From sequence record OR992646: DNA of 33,119 bases, one strand, 5' to 3'. Shown in pieces: positions 26,019-33,119 of this stretch (positions are counted from its first letter, which is position 1; every line of letters begins with the position of its first letter). Both the position numbers and the translations under genes were made by a program. The notes under the pieces are model-generated. The model made no database searches and was not told where the DNA came from. It was given only the letters and a program-made list of their open reading frames with translations. This DNA comes from Escherichia phage ET-SD-TH.

Positions 26019-26273
26019 TCAATCGCGGTTTGGTCCGGTTGGGATGTCGGTAAATCCTCTGCGCTTCCACAGGTGATACAGTCGCCATGCGATGCGTGCG
26101 CGTGGCATTGTTTTGAAGGTTCCCAGTTTGCGTTGATGTTTGCCATCAACGCACGTCACCTGCCAACCCCACGCCAGCCGCTGACAGCCAGGGACGCGCG
26201 CCATGTGCAGGTTGCGGTTGCTGATTGCTGTGACTGCCGGTTTTGGTTTTGCCACCACTGGTGCTGGTTTTTG
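26019..26273 (-). CDS. C-terminal part of a hypothetical protein with AP2-like DNA-binding motif (5' part masked)
   Basis: Frame is open from the N run to TGA at 26021-26019; Pro/Ala/Lys-rich linker then WQVTCVDGKHQRKLGTFKTMPRARIAWRLY resembling the AP2 pattern; terminator follows the stop. Confidence 0.35.
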   Translation of the reverse strand, partial: QKPAPVVAKPKPAVTAISNRNLHMARVPGCQRLAWGWQVTCVDGKHQRKLGTFKTMPRARIAWRLYHLWKRRGFTDIPTGPNRD

Positions 26274-27017
26274 NNNNNNNNNNNNNNNNNNNNNNNNNNN
26301 NNNNNNNNNNNNNNNNNNNNNNNNNNNNNNNNNNNNNNNNNNNNNNNNNNNNNNNNNNNNNNNNNNNNNNNNNNNNNNNNNNNNNNNNNNNNNNNNNNNN
26401 NNNNNNNNNNNNNNNNNNNNNNNNNNNNNNNNNNNNNNNNNNNNNNNNNNNNNNNNNNNNNNNNNNNNNNNNNNNNNNNNNNNNNNNNNNNNNNNNNNNN
26501 NNNNNNNNNNNNNNNNNNNNNNNNNNNNNNNNNNNNNNNNNNNNNNNNNNNNNNNNNNNNNNNNNNNNNNNNNNNNNNNNNNNNNNNNNNNNNNNNNNNN
26601 NNNNNNNNNNNNNNNNNNNNNNNNNNNNNNNNNNNNNNNNNNNNNNNNNNNNNNNNNNNNNNNNNNNNNNNNNNNNNNNNNNNNNNNNNNNNNNNNNNNN
26701 NNNNNNNNNNNNNNNNNNNNNNNNNNNNNNNNNNNNNNNNNNNNNNNNNNNNNNNNNNNNNNNNNNNNNNNNNNNNNNNNNNNNNNNNNNNNNNNNNNNN
26801 NNNNNNNNNNNNNNNNNNNNNNNNNNNNNNNNNNNNNNNNNNNNNNNNNNNNNNNNNNNNNNNNNNNNNNNNNNNNNNNNNNNNNNNNNNNNNNNNNNNN
26901 NNNNNNNNNNNNNNNNNNNNNNNNNNNNNNNNNNNNNNNNNNNNNNNNNNNNNNNNNNNNNNNNNNNNNNNNNNNNNNNNNNNNNNNNNNNNNNNNNNNN
27001 NNNNNNNNNNNNNNNNN

Positions 27018-27157
27018 GGTTTAGCCTCCAGCGATGCCGCCAACTGCCGCAAACACGCCAGTTCAAATTCGCCGCGCAGTGACAGTTCACCGTGGCTGTT
27101 GACCATTTCCAGTTCCGCTATGCGCTCGCGCACGGTGTCAATCGTTACCTGTTTCAT
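27018..27157 (-). CDS. N-terminal fragment of hypothetical protein (3' part masked)
   Basis: ATG at 27157 preceded by GGGGGG; visible translation MKQVTIDTVRERIAELEMVNSHGELSLRGEFELACLRQLAASLEAK; no recognisable motif. Confidence 0.3.
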
Positions 27158-27232
27158 AAACCCCCCACGATTCAATCAGTGCATGTGCCACCAGCAGTGC
27201 GCCGATGGCGTAAATGAAAATGATGTTGTTCA
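27138..27232 (-). CDS. C-terminal fragment of hypothetical membrane protein (5' part masked)
   Basis: Visible C-terminus ...NNIIFIYAIGALLVAHALIESWGVYETGND with one hydrophobic helix; overlaps the start of the next ORF by 20 nt in another frame. Confidence 0.25.
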
Positions 27233-27981: not shown

Positions 27982-30072
27982 TCAAAATGGCCGGTCATCA
28001 TCGTCATGGAATCGCCGGTGGTCAGGGTTTGGCACCTTCGGCGGAATACTGAACAGGCGATTGCTGCCAGACTTCCTGGCAGGCTTGCCAGTGAGTTTTC
28101 TCAGTACCCCTGCACAATGTGTCGTCTGTGCCTTGTTCGGCTTGTCGTAGCCAATTTCTTGCAGCACCTGCGTTGCTGTACGGTCGGTATAGGCTGCCGG
28201 TCTGTCGCAACCCCACTCGTAACGCATCAGTATCATTTCCTCTACCGGGTCAATTGCTTCGTGTTCCTTGTTCACCTGTTCCAGCATGGCTTCTTCTTCT
28301 GCGTTCATCCACCAGCGCTCGCCTTCGCGGTACAACTGCGCCACTTCTGCCCAAACCTGCTGCATATCAATATCGTGTTCGTAGTTGATGCGTGTCACTG
28401 GAATAGTCCACCAGCGAACGTTCCCTGTATCATCCGCAAGGAAGTGTTTCGGGTTCACTGACGCAAAAAACACGGTTCTGCGCTGGTAGGTCGATTCAAG
28501 CCGGTCATAAGGTCTGCGGATTTCGTCACGGTCCTGGCTGATGAATGATTTCAGGCGTGCGATGTCCGATTTACGGAAAGTTGCATCCAGTTCACCAAGC
28601 TCCACCATCCAGCGTCCTATTGCGCTGCTGACGCTATCTTTGTTTGCCGGGTCGATTGTTGCCCCTACCTTAATCAGTTCACGCAGTGTAGGCGGCACCA
28701 GCGAGCGAAACCATGCTGTTTTCCCCAGCGACTGTTCGCCCTGTAGCACCAGAACGCCTTTTGAGTAGAACCCGGTTGGCTGCATCGCGGCAGCAACGGC
28801 GGAAATCAACCAGCGGCGAACCATCATCAACACCAGGCTTCGATCAAAACCTTCCGCCGTTTCCAGTGTATCGCACAGGTCATAAATGCGGCTCACACCA
28901 TCCCACGGTTTTGCGGTGATAAATTCAGATGCCGGATTGTAACGGTTGCTCATGGCAATCAGTTTTACATACTCAGCACAGGAACCAGACGGCATACCGT
29001 TGCGGGCGCACAGGCTGACAATTTCAGTCAATGCGCTGTTCGCTGATGCGTCGTTGCCGTAATCCTTGCCGGGGATCGTAACTACCACATCTTTGCTGAT
29101 TTCGTTGTAACGCGATTTTATGCCGTACTGGGTAAGCAGCCATTCCAGGTTTTCCCACGTGTTAAGCGGTTTTTGCTGGTGGCTCATGTGCGGGAACATG
29201 AACGGGTTTACGCTGGCATCTAGCGGCAGAAAGTTATCATTCACCGGTTCCGGAATCACCGCGTTAATCTGGTTGCATACAGCTTTTAAACCTTCCAGTA
29301 CGTGCAGGTCATTAAAGTCGGTCGGCTTATCGCTAAGGCGCATAAATTTAGGAACCGCCAGCAGGCCACCAGTGGTGATTGATGCCTGGCGAGCGTAGTG
29401 AACGCCATCATTTTGCTTGCCATCTTCGTGCCACTGGTCGTTATCGGCTGCCACAACAATTGTTGCGCGTCCGAACTGCTGACGCATTAGCTTGGCTACG
29501 GTCGGAACGTTGCCAGCATCGAACGCGACCACCACGCAGTAACCGGTAGCCTGGTGGATTGACGCGCCGGTGGAATACCCTTCACAGATAACAATAACCG
29601 GGTTTGCGCCAGTTGGTTTATTGCCAATGACGTGGAAGCACCCACGTTTCTGGCCCCCAGGAAGGTAATCACGGTCACGCCCTAGCTGTGGGTTTTCGTT
29701 CTGGAATATGGCTTGCAGGCTGGTGATCTGCCCGTCAATGTTTCTGATTGGCACCAGCAGCGCGCCATCCTGGTTACGAAAACGACCAATGCGCAGCCCG
29801 AATGATTTAACCAGTTTGCGTTTCAGATATGGGTGTTCATCGCCTTCCAGTTCGGTGGCTGATTCCCATATGGTGTTCGCCTGCGCAGCAGCCTGCGCCA
29901 TACGTTCTGCGCGCAGTTGTTGTTCTTTGCGCTCTTCTTCTTCGCGGCGTTTTTTACGCGCCTGAATCTCTTCGGCAGAAATCGGTGTGCGTTCGTTATC
30001 GTTCAGCGAAAAGCCAAATAACTGCGCCTCACCAATCAGGGTGCCAATCCCAATGCCTCCGTGACGCTTCAC
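27982..30072 (-). CDS. P4-type DNA primase/helicase (Toprim plus D5/P4-like NTPase), as the ORF reinitiating at GTG 30072
   Basis: 696-aa ORF; Toprim-like VIVICEGYSTGASIHQATGYCVVVAFDAGNV and DND motif; Walker A GEQSLGKT in the C-terminal half. The upstream in-frame 120 nt encode the start of a PriCT-2-like domain but are cut off by TAA at 30165-30163. Confidence 0.8.
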   Translation of the reverse strand: MKRHGGIGIGTLIGEAQLFGFSLNDNERTPISAEEIQARKKRREEEERKEQQLRAERMAQAAAQANTIWESATELEGDEHPYLKRKLVKSFGLRIGRFRNQDGALLVPIRNIDGQITSLQAIFQNENPQLGRDRDYLPGGQKRGCFHVIGNKPTGANPVIVICEGYSTGASIHQATGYCVVVAFDAGNVPTVAKLMRQQFGRATIVVAADNDQWHEDGKQNDGVHYARQASITTGGLLAVPKFMRLSDKPTDFNDLHVLEGLKAVCNQINAVIPEPVNDNFLPLDASVNPFMFPHMSHQQKPLNTWENLEWLLTQYGIKSRYNEISKDVVVTIPGKDYGNDASANSALTEIVSLCARNGMPSGSCAEYVKLIAMSNRYNPASEFITAKPWDGVSRIYDLCDTLETAEGFDRSLVLMMVRRWLISAVAAAMQPTGFYSKGVLVLQGEQSLGKTAWFRSLVPPTLRELIKVGATIDPANKDSVSSAIGRWMVELGELDATFRKSDIARLKSFISQDRDEIRRPYDRLESTYQRRTVFFASVNPKHFLADDTGNVRWWTIPVTRINYEHDIDMQQVWAEVAQLYREGERWWMNAEEEAMLEQVNKEHEAIDPVEEMILMRYEWGCDRPAAYTDRTATQVLQEIGYDKPNKAQTTHCAGVLRKLTGKPARKSGSNRLFSIPPKVPNPDHRRFHDDDDRPF

Positions 30073-30165
30073 TGATTTCCAGGTGTCGCGTGCGTCTTTG
30101 CTGTTGTAATTGTCAGACAGGCGTGACCAGTGGTTCCAGACGGTGAAACCGCCGTCGCCTATTTA

Positions 30166-30285
30166 CGATTTGACCGCCATCGCCATGCGCACCCATGTTT
30201 CACGGTCGCAACCGGCGTCGATGTAGGAAAGTGCTTCTGCAATTTCCTGTTCGGTCAAATCCTTATAGTTTTGTTGTGCACTCAT
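30166..30285 (-). other. 5' segment of the primase reading frame (ATG 30285-30283), separated from the main ORF by an in-frame TAA
   Basis: Translation MSAQQNYKDLTEQEIAEALSYIDAGCDRETWVRMAMAVKS then TAA; the same frame continues IGDGGFTVWNHWSRLSDNYNSKDARDTWKSVKRHGGIGIGTLIGEAQLFGF, together resembling one PriCT-2 domain. Confidence 0.55.
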
Positions 30286-30297
30286 AGAACCCCGATT

Positions 30298-30528
30298 TTA
30301 TGGCCTGTTAGCGCGCCATATGGACAGTGCGCGTTGTTCTAGTTCTTCGCGGGCTGTTGCGCCGCGCTGTTTTTCTATCGCTGCCAGCAGGGTGCGCCGT
30401 GCTTCAATGGTTGGCTGATTCAGAACGTATTTGGCTTCGCATTCCAGCAACCATTCCCGGCTATCGCTCAACACTTCGCGCCCATCGTGCAGCGTCACTG
30501 TGGTGGGCTGCCAGGTACAGGCGTTCAC
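30298..30528 (-). CDS. hypothetical protein (76 aa)
   Basis: ORF with ATGA overlap to the upstream methyltransferase-like gene and ending 13 nt before the primase ATG; no recognisable motif. Confidence 0.45.
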   Translation of the reverse strand: MNACTWQPTTVTLHDGREVLSDSREWLLECEAKYVLNQPTIEARRTLLAAIEKQRGATAREELEQRALSIWRANRP

Positions 30529-31223
30529 GCGACCGCCTCACCGCTTGACGGTTCATTGTCGTTAGCGTGGCGCAGGTGAGGCGCGTTGGCGTTGAAAACA
30601 GCAATGGCGAAGCCCAATGGCGTTGCGCTGCGGATGTTTGCACGCTCTGGACCAGGTGGGCATTTATGGATTCTGTCATCTGGTGCGCCCAATGTTTCAT
30701 CGCGGAACGCTTCCGGCATCACGAATCCGCCACCAGTCCAAAGGCATGTTTTCTTCGTGTAGTTGTCGTTCGCACAGTAGCCAGTGTAATCAACAGGGTT
30801 GAAAGCGTGGTCAGGTTTGCGCCAAAGGCTGCTAATCTGGCTAACAGGGTTTTCAACTGCCCACGGCGTGCCAGCCATTTCACCAATGATCTGACACTGC
30901 CAGACAACGTGCATTGCTTTGAACTGAAAGGCCGGGTCAGCTTCGCGTTTTGTGTTGAACCAACGCGCGCCACTCACACCCAAATCAGTGCAAGGCGGGA
31001 ATCCCATAACGAAAACAACGCGGCCAGTAGCCACTGTGCGGCGAAGAATATCCCATGTTGCTGGATGGTCGATGATATGGCCAACGCGGGTGATTGCGCC
31101 ATCAACGTGAACGCCTTCCGGGTGTTGAGGGTCAACAAGAACTGCTTCGTAACCTGCGTCAACCCACGGCTTTGACATTGTGCCAGTGATGTCACACAGG
31201 CAGATGATAATTCCTTTACTCAT
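30525..31223 (-). CDS. putative short C5-cytosine DNA methyltransferase-like protein (orphan)
   Basis: 232-aa ORF with, in canonical order, a beta1-loop-acidic start (IIICLCDITGT...VLVD), a PC motif GFPPCTDLGVSG (motif IV-like) and ENV (WAVENPVS, motif VI-like). Motif I is non-canonical and the target-recognition region is short, so the assignment is tentative. No restriction endonuclease partner is visible. Confidence 0.5.
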   Translation of the reverse strand: MSKGIIICLCDITGTMSKPWVDAGYEAVLVDPQHPEGVHVDGAITRVGHIIDHPATWDILRRTVATGRVVFVMGFPPCTDLGVSGARWFNTKREADPAFQFKAMHVVWQCQIIGEMAGTPWAVENPVSQISSLWRKPDHAFNPVDYTGYCANDNYTKKTCLWTGGGFVMPEAFRDETLGAPDDRIHKCPPGPERANIRSATPLGFAIAVFNANAPHLRHANDNEPSSGEAVA

Positions 31224-31408
31224 AATTTGTCGCCCCCGGACAATTTATACTCAAGCAATTCAAGCTGGTGGGTCGGAATGACTTTCCCACCTTTACACCG
31301 CCAGATAAGCACCGTTTGTTCAGTGCGCCCAAGTAAACGGCCAACATCGCGGCAGGTTAAGCCATGTTCAGCCATAATATTGTGAAGTCGTTCTGTCCTT
31401 TCGTGCAT
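31220..31408 (-). CDS. Cro/YdaS-like helix-turn-helix DNA-binding protein (62 aa)
   Basis: ATG 31408-31406 with GAGG Shine-Dalgarno; LTCRDVGRLLGRTEQTVLIWRCKGGKVIPTHQLELLEYKL matches the HTH then W...G.IP pattern of the YdaS/Cro-like family. The longer ORF from 31453 is rejected because its start lies inside a hairpin and lacks a Shine-Dalgarno. Confidence 0.55.
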   Translation of the reverse strand: MHERTERLHNIMAEHGLTCRDVGRLLGRTEQTVLIWRCKGGKVIPTHQLELLEYKLSGGDKL

Positions 31409-31428
31409 AGTAATAGCCTCGTAATAAC

Positions 31429-31454
31429 AATGCGCCCATAGTACAGGGCGCATT
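31429..31454 (-). terminator. 9-bp-stem hairpin between the small-protein genes and the HTH gene (possible attenuator or partial terminator)
   Basis: AATGCGCCC-N8-GGGCGCATT read at 31429-31454; followed on the minus strand by UUGUUAUUAC. Confidence 0.3.
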
Positions 31455-31488
31455 TCCGAAAGTAAATATCTTTTGAAATAATCTTACG

Positions 31489-31713
31489 TCATCTTGATGA
31501 TCGCGGCATCACGAAACGGAAACCGGCCTGGTGCTTCATGGCCATTGCGCCTGCCAGGCGTATCAGTTCAGCGAAAGGGTCTTTGCCCATTGCTGACGTT
31601 GTGCGGTATTGCTGCGCCGCGTAGTCAGCCGCGTGCTGCGCTGTGCCAGGTGATGCGCCTTGCTTCACCAGTTCGGCAATGACTTGTTTTTTGATGAAGT
31701 CTACCGGGTTCAT
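31489..31713 (-). CDS. hypothetical protein (74 aa)
   Basis: ORF with ATGA overlap to the upstream gene; protein-like composition; no recognisable motif. Confidence 0.4.
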   Translation of the reverse strand: MNPVDFIKKQVIAELVKQGASPGTAQHAADYAAQQYRTTSAMGKDPFAELIRLAGAMAMKHQAGFRFVMPRSSR

Positions 31714-31943
31714 GCTGCCGCCCTCCGGTTGCGCTCCTTTCGTGCCTTGCGGCGCATAGCTGCAATGCCAGTGAAACGTGAACGGCGCAGCCCTGGCTTC
31801 GGGTAGTCCAGCACCACTTGCATTGACCGCACTGGATGGCGGAAACCAGCTTTAACTGCCCAAAGCCGCAGGCTTAACGCTGTTGCGGCCATTGCGCTGG
31901 TGAAACCATCCTTAATGCGTTTAAACGCTTCTGATAAGTTCAT
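31710..31943 (-). CDS. hypothetical protein (77 aa) with basic C-terminal tail
   Basis: ORF MNLSEAFKRIKDGF...RRKARKERNRRAAA; its ATG overlaps the stop of the upstream 54-aa ORF (ATGA). Confidence 0.4.
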   Translation of the reverse strand: MNLSEAFKRIKDGFTSAMAATALSLRLWAVKAGFRHPVRSMQVVLDYPKPGLRRSRFTGIAAMRRKARKERNRRAAA

Positions 31944-32104
31944 TCAACACCCCACGTTTGTTTCAGGTTTTCCACTTCAAGCTCCGTCAACATGCCGTAA
32001 CGGTTCAGATTCCACATTGCTGTTTTCGCTGCCAGGAACGTGATGTGGTTCCTGGTCGCCAGTGCTTCTGCAAACAGTCTGCGAATGCTTTCTATTGTCA
32101 TCAT
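31940..32104 (-). CDS. hypothetical protein (54 aa; below the size cut-off of the supplied ORF track)
   Basis: My own translation MMTIESIRRLFAEALATRNHITFLAAKTAMWNLNRYGMLTELEVENLKQTWGVE; GGAGTGG Shine-Dalgarno 8 nt upstream; ATGA overlap with the downstream gene. Competes with the track ORF 31977..32183 in another frame. Confidence 0.35.
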   Translation of the reverse strand: MMTIESIRRLFAEALATRNHITFLAAKTAMWNLNRYGMLTELEVENLKQTWGVE

Positions 32105-32179
32105 GGTTTAGCCACTCCATCATTGATTGTCCGGTTTCGACGCTGTAGCGCAGCGCGTCTGCTGCTATGTGTTTTATGC

Positions 32180-32683
32180 TCATTTTCCGAACACCAGTTT
32201 TTCAGCGTCATCCACTGACCGCACAACACCGGCGCGGCCCCCGTTATCATTCACCGCGTTGATGAAGTTGCGTTGCAACGGTGACACGCGGGCACCGTCT
32301 TTGACTTCCAGGCCGGTGAAGATGGCCACTTTCTGGCCCACCATGTCAGGCGTGATTTCCACACTGACCAGGCCGAACAGGTCGGAAAACCCTGGCGGCA
32401 GCCCGGTGTCAAACGGCCTGGCGTTTTTCAGCAGCACGTCACGCGGCCCCATCACAACAGGCATCTGGCGCGGCACCTTCACCACTTCATTGCTTGTGTA
32501 AGCCTTGCCAACGTTGGCGCGAAACAGCAGGCAGCGGCCTGCCAGTGCGTTGCGGATTGCGTTCTGCAACGCGTGTTCTTTGTTAGCCATAGATAACCCC
32601 CACCAGGACGCAGCCAGAACCACCAGCAGCCAGAATAATTCATCATTCAGCATCGCCAGGACGCCACGCATGAACAGTTTCAT
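32180..32683 (-). CDS. VRR-NUC-like nuclease domain protein (start ambiguous: 32683 or 32590)
   Basis: GFSDLF...TGLEVKDGARVSPLQRNFINAVNDNGGRAGVVRSVDDAEKL follows the VRR-NUC pattern (PDL...EVK...Q...G...VV). ATG 32683 is ATGA-coupled to the upstream gene but adds a hydrophobic N-terminus; internal ATG 32590 has a strong GGTGGGGG Shine-Dalgarno. Confidence 0.5.
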   Translation of the reverse strand: MKLFMRGVLAMLNDELFWLLVVLAASWWGLSMANKEHALQNAIRNALAGRCLLFRANVGKAYTSNEVVKVPRQMPVVMGPRDVLLKNARPFDTGLPPGFSDLFGLVSVEITPDMVGQKVAIFTGLEVKDGARVSPLQRNFINAVNDNGGRAGVVRSVDDAEKLVFGK

Positions 32684-33072
32684 TTGACGGCCCCCGGATA
32701 TTCACCAGAATTGCAGCGCATCCACACACGCAGGCCAACTTGTTCAGGGCGAAGGCTTGCCGATTGTGGCCAGAACACCTGGCGCGCCACCCAAATGATG
32801 CGGTTCTGGTTGTTGTTGGCCAGCAGGGTGACCACGCCCTGTTCGCCTGCGCCTTTGTCGCGCAGTTCAGCGATTTTGACGGCGATTTTTTGCAGTTCCA
32901 GGCAGTAGTAAACCTGGTCAACGTCCTGCAATTCCGGCTGTGGTGCCGGTTCCTGTTCTTCCGTCACCTGGCAGTTGTCCTTTGCCGGGTCCATTCCTGG
33001 CAGGCATTCGCGCGCCTGTGCTGCTGCGCTGGTGGCCGCCAGGATGAAAGCGGCGATGATAAGTTTTTTCAT
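32680..33072 (-). CDS. predicted secreted/periplasmic protein with N-terminal signal peptide and 4 cysteines
   Basis: ATG 33072-33070 with AGGTGA Shine-Dalgarno; MKKLIIAAFILAATSAAAQA looks like a Sec signal peptide (no lipobox); mature part about 110 aa with 4 Cys; no recognisable family. The track start at 33102 is also possible. Confidence 0.5.
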   Translation of the reverse strand: MKKLIIAAFILAATSAAAQARECLPGMDPAKDNCQVTEEQEPAPQPELQDVDQVYYCLELQKIAVKIAELRDKGAGEQGVVTLLANNNQNRIIWVARQVFWPQSASLRPEQVGLRVWMRCNSGEYPGAVK

Positions 33073-33119
33073 GGTGTCACCTGTGAGAATTGCCCGGCGC
33101 ACCGGGCATGGGTTGTTAT

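Follow-up and report, generated by a model that had tools for sequence, protein, structure and literature searches.

Gene organization between the VRR-NUC nuclease and primase genes of Escherichia phage ET-SD-TH: a lineage-specific small-gene block and an optional cytosine-methyltransferase-fold cassette

In acr-aca operons, the gene of the Aca helix-turn-helix (HTH) protein lies immediately 3' of one or more acr genes, and a single promoter is located upstream of the acr gene(s). The inverted repeats bound by Aca proteins are positioned in this promoter, and one aca family typically occurs beside different acr genes in diverse mobile elements. Small genes followed by an HTH gene are also present in the 33,119-nucleotide (nt) stretch of Escherichia phage ET-SD-TH DNA (sequence record OR992646) that was analysed here and is referred to as the window. 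Three small genes, designated A, B, and C, are followed by a palindrome, an HTH gene, a gene encoding a 232-amino-acid (aa) protein related to C5-cytosine methyltransferases, and genes for a DUF7696 protein and a primase. An earlier note on this DNA had proposed that the small genes, the HTH gene, and the methyltransferase-like gene form an early-expressed counter-defence module with the signature of an acr-aca operon.

The surroundings of the HTH gene also resemble those of Cro and C-protein regulators, which include lambdoid Cro and the controller proteins of restriction-modification (RM) systems. A single-domain HTH protein of 60–70 aa is encoded directly 3' of a palindrome that overlaps its own promoter, and the downstream genes, the DNA-modification gene included, depend on that promoter, as is predicted here. 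The ET-SD-TH locus differs from these systems in that its HTH protein has no significant sequence match to such regulators, there is no restriction gene, and the HTH gene is kept in genomes without the modification gene. The 232-aa protein can be compared to canonical C5 methyltransferases (PF00145; M.HhaI, Dcm, DNMT3), to the orphan enzymes of the family PHROG 757 from Drexlerviridae, Stephanstirmvirinae/Vequintavirinae-like, and other phages, and to CmoX, the DNA cytosine C5-carboxymethyltransferase of Synechococcus phage S-B43 (PDB: 8YF3) (PMC12783734).

An optional cassette between the HTH and DUF7696 genes

We consider it probable that the region consists of two units and not of one counter-defence operon, and that the 232-aa gene is an optional orphan cytosine-modifying cassette in an autoregulated primase unit headed by the HTH gene. 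The slot between the HTH and DUF7696 genes is occupied by the 232-aa gene in four genomes (this window, phages ECO1230-10 and KA2-1, and contig L014), and is empty in 12 (HeidiAbel, ep3, PT1, ECOO78, Alux-21, Arya, MQ-4, L016, L017, L020, L021, and L024). In contig L015, the slot contains the gene of a 350-aa canonical PF00145 C5-methylase (E = 3e-30). The two cassettes share a C-terminal tail (…HANDNQPASGEATA in the canonical and …HANDNEPSSGEAVA in the short enzyme) and the DNA junction into the DUF7696 gene; therefore, one cassette replaced the other by recombination in the slot. By its GC content, the cassette is not recognizable as foreign.

No restriction endonuclease gene is linked to the 232-aa gene, the neighbours of which are the HTH and DUF7696 genes, and no nuclease gene is gained or lost together with the cassette among the relatives. 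The enzyme is therefore an orphan, which agrees with the earlier description of a methyltransferase-like gene without a nuclease partner. The VRR-NUC nuclease encoded upstream of gene A was considered as a restriction partner and rejected, because it is present in all relatives irrespective of the cassette. PHROG 757 homologues from prophages and other phages are also located in early or replication modules without a nuclease partner. The orphan status and the exchange with a canonical methylase in the same slot support a DNA-cytosine-modifying, counter-restriction role, as had been suggested for this gene.

The 232-aa protein matches the profile of PHROG 757 'DNA methyltransferase' with E = 5.8e-80 (residues 1–226 on positions 12–231 of 247). 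Homologues were found in at least 3,784 database clusters (the best 120 are 60–97% identical), with enterobacteria, pseudomonads, and Agrobacterium represented, and in 1,545 phage records, including those of Drexlerviridae, phAPEC8-like, Campylobacter, and Arthrobacter phages. The match to the family is full-length. Like the other PHROG 757 orphans, which have about 215–260 aa, the protein is encoded by a solitary gene in an early or replication module and combines a C5-methyltransferase fold with the PC and EN(V/P) motifs. It is distinguished from them by being a present-or-absent cassette in one defined slot of the Jilinvirus-like group. The family is covered by neither Pfam nor NCBIfam, and individual scans of the window protein and 25 family members yielded no PF00145 hit (E ≤ 10); one distant member, from phAPEC8, gave E = 0.18 against PF00145. 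No functional study of PHROG 757 or of these Jilinvirus genes was found in the literature.

The 232-aa protein is a divergent C5-cytosine-methyltransferase-fold enzyme. Its AlphaFold model (mean predicted local distance difference test score, pLDDT, 84.4; predicted template-modelling score 0.83) has a predicted C5-methyltransferase fold, and nearly all Foldseek hits at E < 1e-3 are DNMT3A, DNMT3B, or DNMT1. The residues that are invariant down to 29% identity (G14, P76-P77-C78-T79, S84-G85, E124-N125-P126, K157/T159-C160/W162, and R198-S199/T201/G204) correspond to the C5-methyltransferase motifs I (partly), IV, VI, VIII-like, and X-like, and the KKTCLW and RSxT motifs are invariant over the same range of PHROG 757 members. 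Motif IV is FPPCT with the cysteine C78, motif VI is ENP with E124, the IX-like motif is PDD (residues 181–183), and the X-like motif is RSATP with R198. The order and spacing of Pro-Cys in motif IV and Glu-Asn in motif VI are as in C5 DNA methyltransferases.

Canonical C5 methyltransferases thus share with the 232-aa enzyme the Rossmann-type fold and the order and spacing of motifs I, IV, VI, IX-like, and X; they are the best structural neighbours of its model, and one of them occupies the same slot in L015. In contrast, the 232-aa enzyme is about 100 aa shorter, has a minimal target-recognition region, and contains LCDxTG instead of FxGxG, PPCT instead of PCQ, ENP instead of ENV, and a motif-X arginine instead of asparagine. 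A comparison with Dcm, which had been called for in the earlier note, placed motifs IV and VI in register, but the hhalign match was not significant (E = 0.13). The alignment to a small profile built of CmoX, a canonical phage methylase, and Dcm covered 214 columns with E = 8e-5, and motifs I, IV, and VI coincided in it. The family profile reached significance only against this CmoX-led profile, whereas E-values against single canonical methylases were 0.015 and 0.13.

The HTH gene and its palindromic promoter-like site

The mechanically called open reading frame (ORF) of the HTH gene (31220–31453, 77 aa) begins inside the hairpin formed by the palindrome. The ATG at 31408, which gives a protein of 62 aa, is the likely start because it is preceded by a GAGG Shine-Dalgarno sequence, is used in the annotations of ECO1230-10 and KA2-1, and fits the PHROG match, which begins at residue 16 of the longer ORF. 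The protein matches the N-terminal 59 positions of PHROG 14341 'transcriptional repressor' (E = 3e-17). The best Pfam family, HTH_23, scores 19.9 bits (cut-off 24.6; E = 6e-4), HTH_31 and HTH_26 are weaker, and there is no significant Pfam match to the Cro, YdaS, XRE, or C-protein families. Searches of NCBIfam, PADLOC, and the PDB with the HTH protein returned nothing above threshold. In these databases and in Pfam, only the neighbouring genes of the locus had hits above threshold, namely to DUF7696, VRR_NUC, and PriCT_2. The PHROG match makes the original HTH call reasonable, with the Pfam HTH families remaining below threshold.

All 15 database relatives of the HTH protein are encoded on 38–44 kb Jilinvirus-like contigs. 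The HTH gene is present with or without the modification gene, and it is always followed by the genes for DUF7696 and the PriCT_2/Toprim/VapE-like primase, including in contig L024, where the upstream genes differ. The HTH gene is thus placed at the head of a replication unit and not at the end of an anti-defence operon. In an Agrobacterium prophage (L009, 5705–6708) and in Arthrobacter phage SerialPhiller (L012, 1780–2597), a PHROG 757 enzyme gene lies directly after a small HTH gene, and the stop and start codons of the two genes overlap, which suggests that the HTH-enzyme pairing is recurrent outside Jilinvirus.

The spacer between gene C and the HTH gene is 80 nt long and holds a promoter-like site and the palindrome, which has 9-bp arms and an 8-nt loop. 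The hairpin reported in the earlier note is borne out by a folding free energy of −17.7 kcal/mol (z = −3.96), which was equalled by none of 200 shuffled sequences. The palindrome is unique in the window, and no second copy was found within the window upstream of gene A with up to three mismatches allowed. The −10-like hexamer TACTAT is located within the palindrome loop (31438–31443, minus strand), and the complete promoter-like site of the window reads TTTACT-17 nt-TACTAT.

The spacer was aligned across 15 loci. The palindrome arms co-vary: they are GCGCCC/GGGCGC in most loci, GGTCCT/AGGACC (AATGGTCCT/AGGACCATT) in Arya, …GCGCCG/CGGCGC… in MQ-4, and a shorter GCGCC/GGCGC in L024. The loop of 8–9 nt always holds TAnnAT in the form of TACTAT, TATTAT, TATAGT, TATCAT, or TACAAT, and a −35-like hexamer (TTTACT, TTTAAA, or TTTACA) is kept in the 15 loci at a distance of 17–18 nt from the −10-like hexamer. 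Judged by its sequence, this spacing corresponds to sigma-70 promoter geometry with a putative −10 element bracketed by an inverted repeat. We infer that the palindrome and the site form a promoter-operator that enables autoregulation by the adjacent HTH protein.

In the two-unit organization that we favour, unit 1 would be the tail of a translationally coupled chain of the 140-aa gene upstream of VRR-NUC, VRR-NUC, A, B, and C. Unit 2 would start at the conserved sigma-70-like promoter with the −10 element in the palindrome loop. The Cro-like HTH protein most likely binds the palindrome as a dimer, and its binding would autoregulate the transcription of the HTH gene, the optional cassette, the DUF7696 gene, and the primase gene. 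The 232-aa enzyme, expressed early together with the replication genes, most likely modifies cytosines of the phage DNA in a sequence-specific manner, which would protect the genome from host restriction enzymes of the same specificity. In read-through transcripts from unit 1, the palindrome may fold as a hairpin, the stem and T-rich tail of which would also attenuate transcription.

It is possible, though on balance doubtful, that the palindrome serves solely to end the VRR-NUC-A-B-C transcript as an intrinsic terminator or attenuator, and that the HTH protein regulates other targets. The GC-rich 9-bp stem with its favourable folding energy, the A-tract upstream, the T-rich tail TTGTTATT downstream, and arms that co-vary as in an RNA helix all fit a terminator. 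However, the T-tail is weak, and the palindrome, with its strong stem and 8-nt loop, was not called by a terminator scan. A plain terminator is unlikely to explain the site because the long loop conserves a −10-like hexamer, at a fixed spacing from the −35-like hexamer, in all 15 loci. Moreover, the terminator and promoter-operator roles are compatible with each other.

Several observations weigh against the proposed autoregulated unit with a cytosine-modifying cassette. The promoter-like site of the window matches the consensus at only 8 of 12 positions and was not called by a consensus scan, whereas the sites of several relatives score 9–10 of 12, and co-variation of the arms would be expected of an RNA hairpin no less than of a protein operator. 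Scans with single sequences, the 25 family members, and profiles provided no significant link of the 232-aa protein to PF00145 or to a solved structure. Its motif I, LCDITGT, does not contain FxGxG, and only G14 of the motif is invariant; in motif X, the asparagine is replaced by arginine (I-R198-S-A-T-P). The use of S-adenosylmethionine and methyl transfer are therefore not assured. Pfam, NCBIfam, PADLOC, and the PDB gave no function for A, B, and C. Finally, among Drexlerviridae, RM resistance was not related in a simple way to the presence of methyltransferase genes in the BASEL study (PMC8594841).

Small genes A, B, and C and alternative readings of the locus

The three tightly coupled small ORFs of 54, 77, and 74 aa described in the earlier note are present on the minus strand as reported, and genes A and B as well as B and C share 4 nt (ATGA), which is the reason to consider them tightly coupled. 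They had been said to carry no recognisable motifs. This holds for Pfam, NCBIfam, and PADLOC, which gave no match, and for PDB sequences, where nothing was below E = 0.1, but all three proteins belong to PHROG families (19635, 21931, and 4439), each of them of unknown function. In tblastn searches, A, B, and C were found in only 12–13 phage records, all of them of Jilinvirus, Arya, or MQ-4, and they have a constant place in the replication array of 16 Jilinvirus-like genomes. Gene A has 67–96% aa identity in 14 related loci, and genes A and C are 62–96% identical across 15 loci. For gene C, 21 relatives were found in the databases, each of them on a contig of the Jilinvirus-like phage type, and an exhaustive HMMER search of 1.84 billion representative proteins identified only six relatives of gene B.

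The gene B product is about 60% identical to its orthologues, compared to about 95% for the adjacent A and C. The low identity is due to its N-terminal half, which is modular and hypervariable: the first approximately 35 aa fall into four or more allelic types that look unrelated. The last 42 aa are near-invariant and Arg-rich (HPVRSMQVVLDYPKPGxRxSRFTGIAAMRRxARxxRNRR). Gene B could encode a host- or defence-targeting factor under diversifying selection. Additional small genes with no known function are inserted between A and B or between B and C in L014, ECOO78, L021, and MQ-4. In the distant contig L024, seven different genes, one of them HNH-like, are positioned between VRR-NUC and the HTH gene, and A, B, and C are missing. 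The small-gene region is thus more variable than its flanks, and the A-B-C block is a lineage-specific, moderately plastic part of the array.

An unlikely alternative is that A, B, and C are replication or recombination accessory factors or host take-over factors, such as modulators of the helicase, VRR-NUC, or primase, or nucleic-acid binders, with no role in counter-defence. Their place between the helicase/VRR-NUC and primase genes in every Jilinvirus-like genome, their coupling to VRR-NUC, and the Arg-rich tail of gene B, which is typical of nucleic-acid binding, are consistent with such functions. The AlphaFold model of the gene C product is a three-helix bundle (pLDDT 86.5), and its best, non-significant fold neighbours are sigma-2-like helical domains, RuvA, and lambda P. 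However, these matches are at chance level (best E = 2 in a fold search of the PDB, with no Acr among the hits), none of the three proteins has homology to a known replication factor, and L024 dispenses with the A-B-C block yet keeps the helicase, VRR-NUC, HTH, DUF7696, and primase genes.

For the 232-aa protein, we regard it as improbable that it is a CmoX-like carboxymethyltransferase that uses host-made carboxy-S-adenosylmethionine (Cx-SAM), supplied by Escherichia coli CmoA, to introduce 5-carboxymethylcytosine into phage DNA. CmoX takes only Cx-SAM, and E. coli CmoA can supply this cofactor in vivo (PMC12783734). In CmoX, Arg-350 replaces the asparagine of motif X (N304 of HhaI) and binds the carboxymethyl group, and SPPC together with R350 is the published CmoX signature (PMC12783734). 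Both elements were confirmed in the CmoX gene (L027, 48586–49704; SPPC at residues 95–98 and R at 350), and Dcm and the L015 methylase have GNS at the R350 position.

The two enzymes appear to have in common an arginine at the motif-X position, which in CmoX binds the transferable group of the cofactor, and they share a PPC sequence followed by serine or threonine. R198 is invariant in 25 of 25 and 11 of 11 PHROG 757 sequences, and global hhalign, at a low alignment probability (17%), as well as the motif spacing (R-x3-P-L) align it with R350 of CmoX. The sequence PDD(R/F)I is positioned 17–18 residues upstream of R198, in register with CmoX. The catalytic cysteine is followed by threonine here (PPCT) and by serine in CmoX (SPPCS), whereas both canonical comparators, Dcm and the L015 methylase, have glutamine (PCQ). 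The hhalign match to CmoX (E = 1e-3) is also better than those to the two canonical methylases.

However, CmoX contains 372 aa and is only about 12% identical to the 232-aa protein, and the published SPPC is FPPC here, with F75 in 10 of 11 diverse members and histidine in one. No cmoA (TIGR00740) or amide-ligase gene lies beside family members in the contexts examined, although the S-B43 CmoA, used as a positive control, was detected with E = 3e-33, and neither cmoA nor cmoY adjoins the 232-aa gene. A class-I methyltransferase in the Agrobacterium prophage was considered as a CmoA candidate and rejected, since it is not CmoA. The canonical Asn-type methylase in the same slot of L015 argues for functional equivalence with ordinary methylation, and R198 could contact DNA instead of a cofactor. 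There is a similarly small chance that the whole PHROG 757 family consists of minimal CmoX-like transferases, in which the motif-X arginine selects carboxy-SAM or another non-methyl donor. If so, common coliphages would carry 5-carboxymethylcytosine or a related mark without encoding the cofactor pathway, and this would apply to more than 1,500 sequenced phages of enterobacteria, pseudomonads, campylobacters, and other hosts.

Like acr-aca operons, the locus has a small HTH gene 3' of small unannotated genes, as well as a palindrome tied to a promoter. The variable N-terminal half of gene B beside highly conserved neighbours, the small genes inserted at A|B and B|C, the lineage-restricted distribution of A, B, and C, and the replacement of the A-B-C block in L024 with the HTH gene kept could also be expected of anti-defence genes. 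However, the layout is the reverse of that of an acr-aca operon: the palindrome and promoter-like site are located between gene C and the HTH gene, downstream of the small genes and with no copy upstream of them, and A, B, and C are coupled to VRR-NUC. The small genes are conserved in position. The HTH gene opens a replication unit, is accompanied throughout by DUF7696 and the primase instead of by varied small genes across mobile elements, and was never found outside the Jilinvirus-like group. Sequence comparison of A, B, and C with Acr, Aca, and anti-restriction families (among them Ocr, ArdA, and ArdB/KlcA) and solved structures (Pfam, NCBIfam, PADLOC, PDB), as well as the fold search with the model of C, showed no similarity. 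Phage HeidiAbel, in which A, B, C, and the HTH gene are present at 59–96% identity and the methylase is missing, was reported as 'very sensitive to RM systems'; those genes therefore give no general anti-restriction. Because of the operator position and the constant downstream partners, the acr-aca call is disfavoured, and it is very unlikely that A, B, and C (as anti-CRISPR or anti-restriction genes), an Aca-like HTH repressor, and the methyltransferase form one early module. From the proposed counter-defence block, the orphan methyltransferase-like cassette is retained, and the acr-aca part is not.

Neighbouring genes and implications

A 3-kb region around the locus aligns end to end with Escherichia phage vB_EcoM_ECO1230-10 at 90.8% nt identity, and further matches are to KA2-1, Alux-21, HeidiAbel_Bas97, PT1, ep3, ECOO78, and Arya, which are Jilinvirus/Iiscvirinae myophages. 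All genes in the interval 30100–33119 of the window are on the minus strand (Table 1). The order in annotated relatives is helicase, small genes, VRR-NUC 'resolvase', three hypothetical genes, 'transcriptional repressor', (DNA methyltransferase), hypothetical gene, and primase; the region is therefore inside the leftward early/replication array of a Jilinvirus myophage. The ORFs of the window have orthologues of equal length and order in 16 further genomes and contigs (59–98% aa identity) and match PHROG profiles with E = 1e-17 to 1e-80, which identifies them as real genes. The start of VRR-NUC overlaps the stop of the preceding 140-aa gene, the HTH stop and the start of the 232-aa gene overlap by 4 nt, and the stop of the 232-aa gene overlaps the GTG start of the DUF7696 gene, which directly precedes the primase gene in all relatives.

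Table 1. Features of the region between the VRR-NUC and primase genes (window coordinates)
Feature	Coordinates	Strand	Basis or remark
VRR-NUC (Holliday-junction-resolvase-like) nuclease gene	32180..32683	-	Pfam VRR_NUC, E = 5e-6, above gathering score
Gene A, 54 aa, PHROG 19635	31940..32104	-	own GGAG Shine-Dalgarno site
Gene B, 77 aa, PHROG 21931	31710..31943	-	ATGA overlap with A
Gene C, 74 aa, PHROG 4439	31489..31713	-	ATGA overlap with B
−35-like hexamer TTTACT of the promoter-like site 5' of the HTH gene	31461..31466	-	read from sequence
Palindrome AATGCGCCC-N8-GGGCGCATT, candidate operator and/or terminator hairpin	31429..31454	.	arms, loop, folding
Small Cro-like HTH gene, 62 aa (likely start)	31220..31408	-	PHROG 14341 'transcriptional repressor', E = 3e-17
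232-aa C5-cytosine-methyltransferase-fold gene, PHROG 757	30525..31223	-	profile match, motifs, fold
DUF7696 gene, 76 aa, GTG start	30298..30528	-	Pfam DUF7696, E = 2e-16
PriCT_2/Toprim/VapE-like primase gene, downstream end of the HTH-led unit	27982..30285	-	broken by in-frame TAA 30163–30165

The primase gene contains an in-frame TAA at 30163–30165 (minus strand), where ECO1230-10 and HeidiAbel read GAA. The gene is thereby split into a 40-aa PriCT_2 fragment and a 696-aa ORF with a new start at GTG 30072, and several more substitutions are clustered near the stop. A frameshift was rejected in favour of this in-frame substitution, which could be a nonsense mutation, a sequencing error, or a sign of a pseudogene. 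A further variable region of the genome is situated directly 3' of the primase gene: the segment 27233–28000 has no megablast match in 50,697 phage records, in contrast to its flanks, for which Jilinvirus phages were matched.

In the Jilinvirus-like metagenome contigs L014, L016, and L017, a nucleotide-modification-associated Nmad5 protein (PF18757) is encoded just after the helicase, and a dATP/dGTP pyrophosphohydrolase-domain protein (PF04447) downstream of the primase. A homologue of the N-terminus of the PF04447 protein is encoded at 27017–27157 of the window (region 26156–27175), in an ORF that itself has no Pfam hit. The Nmad5 and PF04447 proteins hint at more nucleotide-metabolism functions in Jilinvirus-like phages.

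The 140-aa protein encoded at 32680–33102 (minus strand; PHROG 22028), the gene of which is translationally coupled to VRR-NUC, has an N-terminal signal-peptide-like segment, MKKLIIAAFILAATSAAAQA. It is apparently secreted or periplasmic, which is unexpected within a replication module. On the other side of VRR-NUC, an ATG overlapping its stop codon (ATGA) opens a 68-aa ORF (31977–32183, minus strand) that is out of frame with gene A. The apparent spacer between VRR-NUC and A is 75 nt long, and KA2-1 and Arya differ there by an indel of 12 nt that preserves the frame. Part of the peptide (…ALRYSxETG…) is conserved, and the codon-position bias in the spacer (9, 11, and 17 variable sites) is too weak to decide whether it is coding; a fourth tiny gene or a leader peptide is neither shown nor excluded.

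The comparison shows that small ORFs followed by an HTH gene are insufficient for the identification of an acr-aca locus. Nothing speaks positively for an anti-defence function of the lineage-specific genes A, B, and C. The 232-aa gene, which belongs to a widespread family, can plausibly be regarded as an orphan counter-restriction cassette. Among therapeutic-candidate coliphages and Klebsiella phages, the short enzymes of PHROG 757 are very common, and the motif-X arginine of this family raises the question of whether 5-methylcytosine or 5-carboxymethylcytosine is written. Phages ECO1230-10 and KA2-1 with the cassette and HeidiAbel and ep3 without it would provide a natural isogenic series for the effect of the orphan enzyme on host range. 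If the two-unit organization is correct, the locus would be an ordinary but clean case of the way in which counter-restriction functions are carried by small myophages, virulent or temperate-derived: alternative cytosine-modifying cassettes are exchanged in a single recombination slot of a primase operon, which is served by a small autoregulated HTH promoter.

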